Positions 88 to 4,736 of a stretch of DNA of 64,000 nucleotides are shown here, in pieces. The number at the start of each line of letters is the position of its first letter. Position 1 is the stretch's first letter. The notes under the pieces are model-generated. The model ran no database searches. It was not told the DNA's origin and saw only the letters and a list, made by a program, of their open reading frames with translations. A program made the position numbers and the translations under genes. This DNA is from Candidatus Poribacteria bacterium (GTDB lineage Bacteria > Poribacteria > WGA-4E > WGA-3G), in assembly GCA_965198235.1 (NCBI GenBank), contig OZ240248.1, positions 1,472,001-1,536,000 of the forward strand, written 5' to 3'.

Positions 88-437
88 CAATGATGCATAA
101 AGCATGACCAGTCGATTCTCATCTTGGTTATTATAACGCAGGTTGCCATCTTTGTAGCATAATCTTTTAGATTGTGCCTGCGTGTGTCGCAAATTAAATG
201 AAGTTTAAAAAAATATTTCGGTAATCATAGAAGACCGATTCCCAATCAAGAAACGTCTGTAATCCTGTAAATCACAGAATCACAGAAATCACAGTTCAGA
301 CAATGGACCCTCCACATTACCGAATTAAAAAATTAATCTTCATACAGTTTACGCTACAAAACCCCGCGGATACCCAACGGCTTTCAATAAACCGAAGACC
401 GGCTACCATTCCTCAACTTTGAAGAGCTGTTCTATTT

Positions 438-2303
438 TCACGTAAACAGTGGAAATTCGAGTTGTTGTGGTTCTGTCTGTGTAGGCTTCGGTTGCCGGAT
501 CTGTTCTGTTTCAGTTTTAGGCACGGTGTATGTTTCCGGTTTTTGCATCGGTTTCGGATAGGAGCCTGTATCTTTTCTATATCCATACCTATATCCATCG
601 CGATGTCTGAAGCGTCTTAATTGGCTGAGGTTACCTGATTCACGTTTGTCTTTTGTATCTTTATAAAAATTATTTACACGGCATTCTTGCGGTTTCCCTG
701 GAGGGGTCTTCTCAAAGCAGTTAATTACACCTTCTACGCGCCCGCTCTTCTTTGTTAGATAGACATGGTCGCCTCTGTGAAAACCGTTAATGTGAGATGC
801 TTTGAAAATTTTCTGACGGAACCCTGGAAATTTTCCGCCTTTGGTACACCCAAAGCGATATTTGAGGTTATTCCGGCTTCCGTAGCCAAGGGCATGTATC
901 ACAAATACAGGGACTTTCGCACAGGCTTCTTGTGGTGTGTTTTCAACGGCGGCTGCATCATAATAATGTGTCTTCGGCAGCCCAGCACTGTTACGGTTGT
1001 AGGCTGTCCGTCCTCCAGAACCACAAAATACAGGGAGTTGTGTCGCCTGTAGGGTCTCTACAAGTTTCCACCGAATCGTATTCACTGCCGCCGCGTCTGA
1101 TAACGAGAATCCGCGCTTTGATTTTGATAATACCGTCTTTTTTATTTTCTTTGCAATCTCTGGATGCCGCTTTTCTAATTCTTTACCCCAAAGTCCACCC
1201 TTTTTCTGGTTACACGTGTGACATGCCATCGTGAGGTTGTCGAGCCTGTCTGAACCGCCAAGGGCTTGTGGATAAATGTGTTCTATCTCTAAACGCTGCC
1301 CACCTTTGCCACAATAAGCACATTTTCGCTTCGTTAATTCCAATAAATACTCTCTCTTTTCACGTCTATATAAGGGCCCCCGTTGATATTCAATACCGTG
1401 AATATCGGGGTTCTCTAACAGTTGCATATCAAACTTGACTTCCTCAATAGCTAGACGTTTTATCGAATAGAGATTTGTCAATCTGCGTGTCCATGTTTCT
1501 AAGTTGAATACACGAGACATAAGACTCGGTGCAATCCAGCCGTTATCAGCACGTTTTTTGTGTCCAATACGCTCACGTTTCCAACGATACTTCGTGGGTG
1601 GCGTATTCTTCAACTTTGCTTTCAGGGCACTTCGTAAGAACCCTAACGTTTTCGACATCAGGGCATCGCGTTCCGCTTTTTTATCACGCATCATGATATG
1701 GTGAATCAGCTCGTCTCTTGTAAGACGTGCGACCTCTGCGTTCGTCATCTCAGGCATGAATTCTTTACGGGTACGGGATTTGATACGAGTATAACGATAC
1801 CGCTTGTCTTTCAATTGCGCAGACGACACTCTCACAAACTTGTTCTTCGTTTTTGACGAGTCTTTCGATAGATCGGACTCGTCTTCAGCACGTCTGTACC
1901 TCCATCCTTCAGTTTCCGTGAGAACAGGCACTTTACGTCCACGATTCGCCCAGCGCGCTGGCCGGTGTCGTAAATTTCGGGTTCTCCGCCCACGACGAAA
2001 GCCCGCTCTCTCTTTCAAAGCCTTCTTTATCTGGATCCCCCGATGATGAAGTTCTGCCTTCATGACAATGTTGTTCTCATTGTCTAAAATCGCAATCCCT
2101 GATGTTCGGGAACCTGGGTCCCAATTTAGAGAATAAACACCCGTTACGATCTCGTCCTCTGGTATCACGCGCTTGAGGATAATTGCAAACGGATATTTGC
2201 ACCATACTGCCGCCTCCCCATCACGAAGCAAACGACGGGCAACTGCGGGATGGCAGGGTTCCAAGACTTTCTTTTCAGAATCTATAACCGCAACTTTAAA
2301 CAT
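438..2303 (-). CDS. iscB: IscB RNA-guided endonuclease (RRXRR/PLMP-like N-terminus, split RuvC, HNH), large variant with an insertion after the bridge helix
   Basis: N-terminal VLEPCHPAVARRLL (PLMP-like); RuvC-I WDPGSRTSGIAI (D62); Arg-rich bridge helix RAGFRRGRRTRNLRHRPARWANR; GWIAPSL; RuvC-II IEEVKFD (E287); HNH CAYCG..EHIYPQALGGSDRLDNLTMACHTCNQKKG (H342); RuvC-III KTHYYDA (H446/D449). Confidence 0.95.
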   Translation of the reverse strand: MFKVAVIDSEKKVLEPCHPAVARRLLRDGEAAVWCKYPFAIILKRVIPEDEIVTGVYSLNWDPGSRTSGIAILDNENNIVMKAELHHRGIQIKKALKERAGFRRGRRTRNLRHRPARWANRGRKVPVLTETEGWRYRRAEDESDLSKDSSKTKNKFVRVSSAQLKDKRYRYTRIKSRTRKEFMPEMTNAEVARLTRDELIHHIMMRDKKAERDALMSKTLGFLRSALKAKLKNTPPTKYRWKRERIGHKKRADNGWIAPSLMSRVFNLETWTRRLTNLYSIKRLAIEEVKFDMQLLENPDIHGIEYQRGPLYRREKREYLLELTKRKCAYCGKGGQRLEIEHIYPQALGGSDRLDNLTMACHTCNQKKGGLWGKELEKRHPEIAKKIKKTVLSKSKRGFSLSDAAAVNTIRWKLVETLQATQLPVFCGSGGRTAYNRNSAGLPKTHYYDAAAVENTPQEACAKVPVFVIHALGYGSRNNLKYRFGCTKGGKFPGFRQKIFKASHINGFHRGDHVYLTKKSGRVEGVINCFEKTPPGKPQECRVNNFYKDTKDKRESGNLSQLRRFRHRDGYRYGYRKDTGSYPKPMQKPETYTVPKTETEQIRQPKPTQTEPQQLEFPLFT

Positions 2304-2328: not shown

Positions 2329-2542
2329 TCTTCTACTAAAAGCAGAAGATATTGACCTTTAGAGGTAAAGTGAGCCTCGTCAATGTTATCCGTGCTTTAT
2401 TCAGGGTTGACAGCGTATTGTAAAGCCATTTACATTGCACCCGACAGAGCTTTAGGCTGGCGTCATGCACCCAAAGGTGTCTATATCACCGGTAACGTAG
2501 TTGAAAACTTAGACTAGATACCACTTGAGCATGGAGTTGCAA
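2329..2542 (-). ncRNA. omegaRNA/HEARO-like scaffold with a 5' anti-repeat (tracrRNA-like)
   Basis: Minus strand reads ...TAGTCTAAG..AACTACGTTA..GACACCTTTGGGTGC..GCCAGCCTAAAGCTCTGTC..AACATTGACGAGGCTCACTTTACC, the motif order typical of HEARO/omegaRNA upstream of iscB. Visible pairings: GACA/TGTC, CTTTGGG/CCTAAAG, pseudoknot AGTCT/AGGCT, and 3' hairpins. Exact ends uncertain. Confidence 0.85.
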
Positions 2543-2636
2543 ATTTGCCGTCAATCTCCCGGTGAATTCACACTATCGGAGGTCGACAGCAAAATTCTTA
2601 AGAGGATTGCCGGTGACACCTACATTCTTGCATAGC

Positions 2637-3210
2637 GTTGCAACGCAAACATGCCCAAGCGATAACTGCATCTCGATGTGATAGTCGCGCCCGACATCAG
2701 AGTTGCAACGCAAACATGCCCAAGCGATAACTCACAACGATGTAGATCGCTTTCTTCGGCTGATAGGGTTCCAACGCAAACATGCCCAAGCGATAACTGA
2801 CGATATGATTAGACAAACTGGCAATGTAATCACGTTCCAACGCAAACATGCCCAAGCGATAACTCTTTCTCTGGATCGTATTGGGAATCGAGGTACGTAG
2901 GTTGCAGTTCAAACAGGCCCATAGGTGTCAATTTTAGAAAATATATCCGTCTTTTATGGGACTTGCGTGCTATATCTTGTCTGAATCACGGATGACACGG
3001 ATTTCGCAGATTTCGCAGATTTTGGAGTTCTCTGTCCGTGCGAGGTCTTTAGTAAGTGTTGGGTTTCACTGAGTATGTCTGTGATGGCAAGTATATGAAC
3101 GGTGGCTTAGTTTTCTATGAGTTGAAAGCATTTGTGGTTATCCGTTCAACCCAACCTACGATACTAAATTGACACCTATGGTTGCAACGCAAACATGCCC
3201 AAGCGATAAC
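2637..3210 (-). CRISPR. CRISPR array; repeat (minus strand) GTTATCGCTTGGGCATGTTTGCGTTG(C/G)AAC, 5 full repeats plus 1 degenerate partial repeat, 4 unique spacers
   Basis: 30-bp repeats at 2637-2666, 2702-2731, 2768-2797, 2834-2863 and 3181-3210; degenerate partial repeat at 2901-2921; unique spacers of 35, 36, 36 and 37 bp. Orientation inferred from G-U-compatible pairing with the anti-repeat. Confidence 0.93.
2919..3181. mobile_element. MITE/REP-composite non-autonomous element inserted in the CRISPR array
   Basis: Terminal inverted repeats CCATAGGTGTCAATTT (2919-2934) and AAATTGACACCTATGG (3166-3181); internal GTAGGTTGGGTTGAACGG...GTGAAACCCAACACT is shared with the copy at ~63673-63806. 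Confidence 0.75.
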
Positions 3211-3294: not shown

Positions 3295-4224
3295 CTACCC
3301 CCAAACGCCGATGTCCTGTAATATCGACTTTTTGATTTTGCAGACCATCGTATACGCCGGATCGAAGACGTTCCCCATATCGTATTCTACCGCTTGCCCT
3401 AAAAGGATGTGTGCGGCACGTTTTTCTAAACCGAGTTCACCCAACCACCGAAGAAGTTCCGTCGTGGCGTGTTGCACCGCTTGATCCAACGGACGTGCAT
3501 TTCCCGCTGCTAAAATATAATCGCTGTTTTCCGCACGGGGCCAGTTGATGCTTTTTCCTTTAAGCACTTCAACCGTAAACTGCACATCGAAAGAGATTTC
3601 GATCCCAGTCCCGACGATTTCGCCATCACCCTGCACGGCGTGTCCATCACCGAGATGAAAGAGCCCACCGGGGACGAAAACCGGGAAGTAGACGGTAACA
3701 CCCTCCTTGAAACCGCGATAATCCATGTTTCCGCCGTGTGTAGAGGAAGTCGCCGTTGAAATCGCTTGTCCTCGCGGCGGTGCCACCCCGAAACATCCCA
3801 CCATCGGTTCAAGCGGCAGCGTGAGTTTACCCAACTGCGTCACTGAGGTCATCAATGTCGCCGTCCATTTTTCCACATCGACATGCCACTCTGCGAGACC
3901 ACGACCACCTTCCGGCATCTCGGACGCTACATAGTCGGGATCGAGGACATTGGGAGCAACGGTCATAGCCGTCCGTCCGATCGAGCGATTCGGAACTATC
4001 CGATCGAAATGAACTGCTAACGTATCCCCGGGTTCTGCCGATTCAATATAAAAAGGACCTGTTTGTGGGTTGCCTCTTTCAGTTACCTGTGTATCGTTGG
4101 CATCGTAGCCCGCGTTATCCACGGTTGTTGTGAAAACGGTGTCGCCGCTTTCAATATGGAGCACCGGTTCGTGCGCGCCAATTGCTGTATAATAGACCGT
4201 CGGTTCAAAGTGATGTGTCGCCAT
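3295..4224 (-). CDS. Acetamidase/formamidase family protein
   Basis: NPQTGPFYIESAEPGDTL, HGGNMD and LGDGHAVQGDGEI motifs. Confidence 0.9.
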   Translation of the reverse strand: MATHHFEPTVYYTAIGAHEPVLHIESGDTVFTTTVDNAGYDANDTQVTERGNPQTGPFYIESAEPGDTLAVHFDRIVPNRSIGRTAMTVAPNVLDPDYVASEMPEGGRGLAEWHVDVEKWTATLMTSVTQLGKLTLPLEPMVGCFGVAPPRGQAISTATSSTHGGNMDYRGFKEGVTVYFPVFVPGGLFHLGDGHAVQGDGEIVGTGIEISFDVQFTVEVLKGKSINWPRAENSDYILAAGNARPLDQAVQHATTELLRWLGELGLEKRAAHILLGQAVEYDMGNVFDPAYTMVCKIKKSILQDIGVWG

Positions 4225-4312
4225 TTTTTAATTTTTCCTTGCGGTTCGTTCAGGTGGATTGGATAAATAACGTTACCCGCCGTATATCCGCCTGCGCCGT
4301 TGTTGCAGGCTA
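4225..4312 (-). repeat. Dispersed repeat family A (...GATATACGG...GAACCGCAAGGAAAATTAAAAA), directly before the acetamidase ATG
   Basis: Homologous to units at 15448-15718, 17379-17789, 26394-26490, 28669-28760 and 29500-29570. Confidence 0.7.
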
Positions 4313-4736
4313 CAATTTTGCTTTATTTTTTCCAAGATAAAAGAAACGTCAAAATTCCGAAGCATCGTTGAGACTTAAACAGAAACCTGCCCGTAATGGA
4401 ATGGAGGGGTTTTTGCTTGGGTGTTTCTTTGCCCAGGAGCAATAAATTAAAAAGCAATGTGAATAATATATCACGTTCGAGAGGCATCGTCAAGATAAGA
4501 ACATTAACCCATACGACGATTGGATATTGAGCGGTTTTCATAGTCGGGTTCCCTAAAATCCGCGAAATCTGTGTAATCCGTATAATCCGCGATTCAGACA
4601 ATTAACACCCGACACGAGCCACTTAATCCTTAAATTTCATGTAATCATGCCGACTTTGCTGACTGCTGATGGAAACCGACAGCCAATTACTGATAACTGA
4701 TAATCGGATACCTCTACAGGTCTCCCGAAAAATGAT

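Follow-up and report, generated by a model that had tools for sequence, protein, structure and literature searches.

Which kind of RNA guides an IscB, a small nuclease ancestral to Cas9, when an array of repeats and spacers stands ahead of its gene? The question is raised by a 64,000-nucleotide stretch of DNA from a member of Candidatus Poribacteria, which are sponge symbionts (contig OZ240248.1, positions 1,472,001 to 1,536,000; hereafter the window). Within its first 3.3 kb, the minus strand reads, in order, array, linker, stem-loop, anti-repeat, pseudoknot element, the rest of a structured RNA and iscB. An earlier note on this DNA (the original prediction) had proposed that the anti-repeat pairs with the array repeat, as a Cas9 trans-activating RNA (tracrRNA) pairs with its CRISPR RNA (crRNA). 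We find that the two do pair, and that the repeat is homologous to the 5' arm of an omegaRNA stem. The explanation that we favour, with a probability of about 0.72, is a CRISPR-associated IscB locus of the OMEGA type, standing between a transposon omegaRNA and the crRNA:tracrRNA of Cas9, with several guides per IscB.

Pairing of the array repeat with the anti-repeat

The repeat and the anti-repeat pair on the minus strand, at a fixed place in the scaffold, and they co-vary among relatives. The array comprises five copies of a 30-nt repeat, GTTATCGCTTGGGCATGTTTGCGTTGCAAC, and four spacers of 35-36 nt, and it adjoins the scaffold in the same orientation. The minus-strand copies start at 3210, 2863, 2797, 2731 and 2666, those at 2863 and 2797 having GGAAC instead of GCAAC. 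The anti-repeat is UUGCAACUCCAUGCUCAAGUGGUAUCU (2542-2516, minus strand), followed by AGUCUAAG at 2515-2508, and the terminal repeat lies in cis, 94 nt upstream of it, across a conserved embedded stem-loop. In the proximal stem, 17 of the 18 positions pair, three of them as G-U, and the remaining one is U.U (in order: A-U, G-C, U.U, U-A, A-U, U-G, C-G, G-U, C-G, U-A, U-A, G-C, G-U, G-C, C-G, A-U, U-A, G-C). A 5x2 internal loop follows, and then a 7-bp distal helix, GUUGCAA:UUGCAAC, so that the duplex has the lower stem, internal loop and upper stem of a crRNA:tracrRNA pair. In these respects the original prediction was exact, in its letters as well as in its coordinates and pairs. The leading A of the duplex is the last base of the spacer; it is A in four of the five window copies and is not conserved in relatives (AU in 4, GU in 2, other in 5).

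RNAduplex gives -31.5 kcal/mol for the repeat against 2545-2513. With the repeat stretch 2671-2641, in which the last four repeat bases are absent, the minus-strand pair reaches -27.4 and the plus-strand versions -16.2. Among 42,191 windows of 33 nt taken from both strands outside the array (mean -13.5, standard deviation 3.8), only two other places are as stable, both of them in G+C-rich DNA near 63 kb, so that the energy alone is not decisive. That both RNAs come from the minus strand, as had been predicted, is borne out by the scaffold and the IscB open reading frame (ORF), which lie there, and by the 23 of 282 pair cells in 11 loci that are G-U, since such cells would be A.C on the other strand.

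A protein search retrieved hundreds of IscB relatives (450-670 aa), of which 40 were aligned (A1), and this alignment led to 42 genome and 78 metagenome loci. Arrays were sought in the 84 loci with at least 300 nt upstream, as at least three copies of an exact 11-mer, a criterion that misses two-copy or degenerate arrays; the scan left out loci whose match started away from the protein N-terminus and those with shorter upstream sequence (L006, L022, L028, L049, L057, L066, L074, L088, L094 and L108). Same-strand arrays were found in 10 of the 13 Poribacteria loci scanned, with 3-28 repeats and ending 300-545 nt before iscB. The repeats of these relatives align without gaps yet differ in sequence, and the anti-repeats differ along with them.

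The region from the last repeat to the ORF was aligned for 11 loci, namely the window and 10 Poribacteria relatives, and the covariation across homologous loci that the original prediction had proposed as a check is present in them. Over the 282 cells, 82.3% pair, against 28.4-41.1% with the partner slid by 1-3 columns, a comparison in which the tested structure is favoured, having been derived from the window; this bias applies less to the counts of double changes. Both sides have changed in 8 of 26 pairs, where shuffles give 3.2 +/- 1.3 (0 of 500 reach 8) and slid controls 0-4, and the covariation score is 0.230 against at most 0.071 in the slid controls. Examples of co-varying segments (repeat with anti-repeat) are GUUAUCG/UGGUAUC in the window, GUUUCCG/CGGAAUC in L004, GUUCUCG/CGAGAUC in L011 and GUUUGAG/CUCAAUC in L013. 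In L012, the distal GUUGAAAC stands opposite GUUUCAAC, a compensatory change that is non-palindromic on both strands; therefore, the distal helix is a real pairing, beyond a shared palindrome. RNAalifold recovers the proximal helix de novo, together with the embedded stem-loop (columns 94-110 with 127-144). The position of the anti-repeat 94 nt after the last repeat, inside the scaffold, and the covariation in relatives thus make a chance origin of the complementarity untenable.

The U.U at repeat position 2 (window 2518; columns 3/260 of alignment A2) is conserved in 10 of the 11 loci while its neighbours co-vary, the eleventh, L014, being shifted by one alignment column. This mismatch, which adjoins the first G-C pair, may serve in recognition. 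The duplex is up to ~28 bp long in L005, L007 and L014. The anti-repeats of L004, L011 and L013 are split by a 55-65-nt insertion that forms two hairpins (A2 columns ~163-245); they retain a 7-bp stem base and a 5-bp CAUGG:CCAUG segment, an arrangement that implies a junction inside the repeat:anti-repeat duplex.

The repeat as the 5' arm of an omegaRNA stem

Directly upstream of iscB, Infernal places HEARO (RF02033), the RNA now named IscB omegaRNA, at 2587-2365 of the minus strand and over its full length (model positions 1-211). The 3' arm and the pseudoknot positions of the model fall on 2530-2508. The anti-repeat is accordingly the 3' arm of the outer stem, just before the pseudoknot element, where the original prediction had put it. 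The embedded stem-loop aligns to the internal hairpins of HEARO, the 5' arm of the model has no local pairing partner in the Infernal alignment, and the scaffold is conserved in 10 relatives.

The nature of this 5' arm is revealed by two array-less loci, L008 and L010, which come from the same assembly (prefix PYIY01) as the array-bearing L012. Both have one copy of a 30-nt unit that is homologous to the repeat and just as far from the scaffold. This unit pairs in cis with the 3' arm, around the same embedded hairpins (minimum free energy, MFE, of -75.6 in L008), and gives an ordinary omegaRNA guide-adaptor stem. The window's terminal repeat, too, is paired in cis with the anti-repeat, whether the MFE or the centroid structure is taken (z = -4.1). 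Therefore, the array repeat is homologous to the cis 5' arm of the stem and has been multiplied together with the guide. Two parts of the original prediction do not survive this comparison. The anti-repeat is not the 5' end of the omegaRNA, as the stem-loop at 2593-2544 and the linker lie 5' of it and the conserved RNA begins at the terminal spacer and repeat; nor has the repeat replaced the 5' arm, since it is that arm.

We therefore favour an arrangement in which the array, the omegaRNA-like scaffold and iscB would all be read from the minus strand. Each array unit would provide a guide (the spacer) followed by the 30-nt repeat as the ascending (5') arm of the guide-adaptor stem, for which the anti-repeat at 2542-2516 would be the single descending arm. 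The terminal spacer, its repeat and the scaffold would make up a complete omegaRNA in cis, while the upstream units would be extra copies of guide and 5' arm that share the one anti-repeat. They could reach it by alternative intramolecular pairing within one long array-scaffold transcript, or by pairing in trans with further scaffold molecules, and by either route several guides would be offered to one IscB. The 5' guide would pair with target DNA, and IscB, by homology, would cut next to a target-adjacent motif (TAM). The use of the upstream spacers, the manner of RNA cutting and the TAM-adjacent cleavage of DNA are inferred, whereas the pairing with its strand, scaffold position and covariation, the homology between repeat and cis arm and the identity of the protein are demonstrated.

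Short same-strand arrays are also seen at distant metagenome IscB loci (L051, L054, L067, L065 and L087). One distant group has 28-nt repeats that start with GTCACC and have a GGTGAC partner downstream, and two distant loci have 37-nt repeats ending in TTGCAAC. These arrays suggest a repeated, independent multiplication of the guide-adaptor arm.

Maturation, upkeep and growth of the array

The same pairing could instead belong to a true dual-RNA system, in which the scaffold would be transcribed from its own promoter in the linker, pair in trans with every repeat of the pre-crRNA and be cut by a double-strand-specific RNase. The size of the duplex, 18+7 bp here and longer in the relatives named above, resembles that of crRNA:tracrRNA, the linker 3' of the last repeat is partly conserved, and arrays of up to 28 units with one anti-repeat per transcript call for extra scaffold molecules. 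Nevertheless, we consider a dual-RNA system unlikely. DelIscB acts as one RNA (Zhang et al., 2025), and the terminal repeat of the window, lying in cis, would be a competitor for the anti-repeat. No sigma-70-like promoter from which a separate scaffold transcript could start was found at 2636-2544 of the minus strand, in a promoter and terminator scan that was at chance level overall (3 found, 1.8 +/- 1.3 expected) and speaks neither for nor against such a transcript; nor was an RNase III domain found in the 21 genomes searched.

RNase III matures the guides of Cas9. Its domain PF14622 was matched in 0 of 21 Poribacteria genomes, including that of the window (for 16 of these, completeness is 90% or more and contamination 5% or less); as a control, it was matched in 8 of 14 reference genomes. 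PF00636 had no match in the window's genome, the one genome searched, and the only stretch found with TIGR02191 (25.5 bits) is a lone 172-aa protein with a double-stranded RNA-binding domain, beside rpsU (L145:1540-2058). Because no RNase III catalytic domain was found, a trimming that does not depend on this enzyme is favoured; guide maturation is most likely independent of RNase III, and the RNase III-dependent processing put forward in the original prediction is doubtful for the native host. If this negative holds, Poribacteria would be a lineage without canonical RNase III.

The state of the arrays bears on whether the upstream units matter. All 26 copies of the repeat in L005 are identical, as are all 20 in L004, and mismatches or degenerate copies are confined to the IscB-distal end. 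Spacers of related arrays measure 35-40 nt and are all unique. Arrays occur in 11 of the 14 members of a Poribacteria clade with 100/100 support. Furthermore, the locus is syntenic in four genomes, in which the flanking genes are alike: IscB and the noncoding RNA (ncRNA) show 92-94.5% identity among these loci versus 82-90% for the flanking genes, and the spacer content is fully replaced between them. Identical repeats, unique spacers, retention and spacer turnover together suggest that the arrays are used and maintained and that the upstream units matter.

It is in this light that another explanation should be read, namely that only the terminal unit works, as an ordinary cis omegaRNA, and that the upstream units are inert remains of duplications or of earlier events at transposon ends. 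The strong cis fold, the single-unit relatives within the clade, the missing adaptation genes next to the array, the two array-bearing genomes without intact Cas1 (G005 and G006) and the window unit already broken by a miniature inverted-repeat transposable element (MITE) would all agree with it. However, inert copies should decay, yet 20-26 repeats are identical, with mismatches only distal to IscB; the narrow length range and uniqueness of the spacers, the retention of the arrays and the replacement of spacers between syntenic loci also speak against inertness, which we judge very improbable. Finally, a complementarity without any RNA pairing, arisen by chance or merely because the GTTGCAAC motif is palindromic, is refuted in practice: two unrelated places in the window do reach the same duplex energy, and the distal arm, as a palindrome, has the same sequence as the repeat end to which it is complementary, but the covariation at 8 pairs, the non-palindromic compensatory change in L012, the constant placing within a homologous scaffold across 11 loci and the independent RNAalifold prediction stand against it.

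The OMEGA-type reading with several guides has its own difficulties, to which the equal duplex energies near 63 kb, the bias towards the window-derived structure and the missing scaffold promoter already belong, and the following points, together with the failure to find protospacers and the lack of cas1/cas2 beside the array, likewise weigh against it. The HEARO match, at 68.4 bits, is below the Rfam gathering score of 83. In a matrix of duplexes between repeats and scaffolds, intended as a covariation test that preserves relatedness, the cognate scaffold comes first in only 4 of 11 rows; that of the window ranks 6th of 11, because near-identical relatives carry fewer wobbles and cross-pair. 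The matrix is clear only for L002, L005, L007 and L014; it is uninformative for the near-identical group of the window and L001-L003 and for the split anti-repeats of L004, L011 and L013, which escape its 40-nt window. Alternative pairing is energetically feasible, which speaks for the reading: when a transcript of 405 nt is modelled, repeat 2 captures the anti-repeat with p = 0.84 and the terminal repeat does so with p = 0.09. This is, however, an equilibrium fold that ignores co-transcriptional kinetics.

The RNA and spacer data must be interpreted with similar caution. Metatranscriptome contigs from four runs in two studies extend from the terminal repeat through the scaffold into iscB, and one of them (run X1, 2368-2666) is identical to the window; these are Logan contigs without strand, ends or levels, and they may stem from carried-over DNA. 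The common stop of all four at 2664-2666 is where a de Bruijn graph with k = 31 branches on a repeated 30-mer and hence does not mark the end of a transcript. Contig joints at 2533/2763 and 2732/3288, with sides of 22-31 letters, probably come from the arrays of other strains. No protospacer was found for 128 spacers of 11 loci by blastn-short against the window's genome and the fetched loci, phage and viral collections lying outside this search; only self hits and chance-level matches of 16-20 nt were obtained, and no TAM can be inferred because of this. The four spacers of the window have no second copy in the genome, and none recurs in L001-L003. The first 'spacer' of L001 (L001:3115-3166, 52 nt) is not a spacer but a dispersed repeat, for which the window's genome gives 77 hits.

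As for adaptation, neither cas1/cas2 nor any other cas gene adjoins the IscB array, and the one Cas1 that the genome has is fused to Cas4 (Cas4-Cas1) and belongs to a type I locus at a distance of 1.26 Mb, whose 37-nt repeat is unrelated. Among the nine other array-bearing genomes, intact Cas1 is found elsewhere in seven, whereas G005 has no Cas1/Cas2 and G006 only a Cas1 fragment. The degenerate repeats at the distal end, the distal location of the sole spacer fragment shared between strains and the upstream-flank homology to L001-L003, which runs through array repeat 1, the distal-most one, hint that new units enter at the scaffold-proximal end. One may go further and combine these hints: the array would grow next to the omegaRNA, the new spacer would be the cis guide, and older spacers upstream would still capture the anti-repeat, all without dedicated cas1-cas2, a separate tracrRNA gene or RNase III. 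The missing enzymes are hinted at by the two array-bearing genomes without intact Cas1 and by the negative search for RNase III in 21 genomes, and we hold this joint reading to be rather improbable. If it were true, the locus would be a living snapshot of one omegaRNA becoming crRNA and tracrRNA, with a route of maturation, and possibly of acquisition, not yet described.

The type I locus itself (G000:C1:2720000-2739999, L136) encodes a WYL regulator, four ORFs without Pfam hit, a Cas3-type helicase, Cas6, Cas4-Cas1 and Cas2, and a long array of 37-nt repeats follows over ~4 kb.

Known systems, the IscB protein and features of the locus

CRISPR-associated IscBs were reportedly described by Altae-Tran et al. 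in 2021. The array/anti-repeat architecture is already published for such IscBs, and the locus is therefore not of a new kind. In DelIscB, the ncRNA consists of the direct repeat, ~100 nt, the anti-repeat and CAGACUAAG, and activity persists when the intervening part is swapped for a GAAA tetraloop (Zhang et al., 2025; PMC12660989); guide-RNA-directed, TAM-adjacent cutting is established for OgeuIscB and DelIscB. Structural work on IscB (Kato et al., 2022; PMC9640706) and on IsrB (Hirano et al., 2022; PMC9581776) equates the omegaRNA guide-adaptor hairpin with the Cas9 repeat:anti-repeat duplex, the latter study describing the ascending strand as replaced by crRNA. The idea of a repeat/anti-repeat pair that the original prediction brought forward is thus already present in these three papers. 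The DelIscB paper treats it as an open question whether, and in what way, such an RNA is divided into a crRNA-like and a tracrRNA-like part, and whether more than one spacer is put to use.

The Poribacteria locus resembles that of DelIscB in having an IscB behind an array and an ncRNA with repeat, ~100 nt, anti-repeat and ...AGACUAAG, with scaffold blocks that look homologous by eye; the two proteins belong to the RRXRR/HNH family with many motifs common by eye, and adjacent cas genes are lacking. In contrast to DelIscB (457 aa), the window's IscB has 621 aa, ~130 aa of the difference being an insertion after the bridge helix; the repeat sequence differs, and the Poribacteria locus is a chromosomal one with conserved synteny, whose arrays reach 28 repeats. 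With the canonical IscB omegaRNA (HEARO), it shares the scaffold match over model positions 1-211 and a first stem equal to the guide-adaptor hairpin, and the array-less L008 and L010 are single-guide forms of the canonical type. It departs from the canonical state in having the guide and 5' arm in five copies (3-28 in relatives) instead of one, and in being syntenic rather than mobile. Indeed, a mobile IS200/IS605 element can be ruled out, as there is no tnpA within ~420 kb and the flanking genes are alike in four genomes; the genome has six Y1 (IS200/IS605) transposase genes, the nearest ~424 kb from the locus.

Type II Cas9, and especially the compact II-D Cas9d, is similar in that the guide lies 5' of the pairing part of the repeat, the anti-repeat stands ahead of a nexus-like scaffold, the duplex has lower stem, internal loop and upper stem, and RuvC and HNH are accompanied by an insertion at the REC position. 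Unlike Cas9 and Cas9d, however, the locus has kept a PLMP-type N-terminus, the IscB size and a large omegaRNA scaffold, the terminal repeat is covalently in cis, and no cas1/cas2/cas4 operon or RNase III was found. A type II CRISPR-Cas9 system is ruled out by the N-terminus, the size and the lack of cas1/cas2 in the locus. What is specific to the clade is the synteny, the arrays of up to 28 repeats, the lack of adjacent cas1/cas2, the negative search for an RNase III domain in 21 genomes and the REC-like insertion. A full-text literature search, with the IscB set of Altae-Tran et al. of 2021 lying outside the check, returned no paper naming both Poribacteria and IscB. Current views are not overturned; our results add well-documented cases and comparative proof of the pairing. 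The clade also offers natural material, with array-bearing (L012) and single-guide (L008, L010) forms in one genome, anti-repeats that are whole or split by hairpins, insertions of various sizes at the REC site and a host without detectable RNase III. IscBs with REC-like insertions are moreover of the kind sought for compact genome editors.

The 621-aa ORF is an IscB with a PLMP-type N-terminus, RuvC, an arginine-rich bridge helix, a REC-like insertion and HNH. It matches Pfam RRXRR (8e-50, residues 4-125) and HNH (3.5e-11), and phmmer against IscB chains of the PDB gives E values of 4.6e-32 to 1.5e-17. With an AlphaFold model (mean predicted local distance difference test score, pLDDT, of 68.5), the best Foldseek matches are IscB-omegaRNA structures (8csz, E 7.9e-16), which outscore Cas9 structures by far. 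The N-terminal VLEPC lines up by eye with the KPLMPC of Bacillota relatives. The REC-like insertion of ~130 aa lies after the bridge helix (residues ~124-250), and its residues ~188-230 are modelled as a small helical bundle (pLDDT ~95). In relatives, the insertion is shorter, of another kind or missing altogether (450-475 aa). L012 combines an array with the lack of the insertion; therefore, the array and the REC-like insertion are not strictly linked. A Cas9 effector is ruled out, as the PLMP-type N-terminus is kept and only the ~130-aa insertion is found at the REC site. In six further ORFs of 185-413 aa, the match to the IscB is limited to its 130-136 N-terminal residues (E 1e-8 to 2e-5; G000:C1 positions 4648505, 1584774, 4955017, 734211, 2947996 and 4679199), and these ORFs may be IsrB-like or other RuvC/PLMP relatives.

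The positions of these elements are collected in Table 1. The neighbours of iscB are an acetamidase-family gene and a trypsin/PDZ protease gene.

Table 1. Features of the IscB locus in the first 3.3 kb of the window.
Feature	Position	Strand	Basis or remark
Array repeat 1, IscB-distal end, 30 nt	3181..3210	-	repeat scan
MITE-like insertion within the array, 263 nt	2919-3181	.	16-nt perfect terminal inverted repeats (2919-2934, 3166-3181)
19-nt remnant of the repeat 3' part, left after the MITE-like insertion	2900..2918	-	15/19 bases match, by eye
Array repeat 2, GGAAC variant	2834..2863	-	repeat scan
Array repeat 3, GGAAC variant	2768..2797	-	repeat scan
Array repeat 4	2702..2731	-	repeat scan
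Terminal repeat, forming in cis the 5' arm of the omegaRNA-like guide-adaptor stem	2637..2666	-	MFE, centroid, RNAalifold
Four spacers, 36/36/36/35 nt	2899-2864, 2833-2798, 2767-2732, 2701-2667	-	interleaved with repeats 2-4
Linker 3' of the terminal repeat, 43 nt	2594..2636	-	partly conserved in the alignment of relatives
Embedded stem-loop, conserved, 5' of the anti-repeat	2544..2593	-	UUUGCUGUCGA ... UUGACGGCAAA around CCUCC...GGGAG
Anti-repeat, 3' arm of the first stem	2516..2542	-	UUGCAAC distal arm, 2-nt loop side, 18-nt proximal arm
Pseudoknot element AGUCUAAG	2508..2515	-	aligned to the [[[[[ positions of HEARO
HEARO (RF02033)/omegaRNA scaffold	2365..2587	-	Infernal 68.4 bits, E 1.1e-12
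IscB, 621 aa	438..2303	-	Pfam RRXRR + HNH, alignment, PDB chains, Foldseek

The MITE-like element, which L001-L003 do not have, sits directly after repeat 1. BLAST returns 35 hits for it in the genome, of which one is the copy here and another a near full-length one at 83% identity. A sigma-70-like match inside the element (3117 to 3090, minus strand) faces into the array. In each of the four RNA libraries, two intergenic stretches of the window (155-462 and 4159-4466), rich in short GATTACAG/CTGTGATT-like repeats, have a summed contig depth 10-100 times that of their neighbours; they show many joints and loose ends and probably represent a widespread repeat family.

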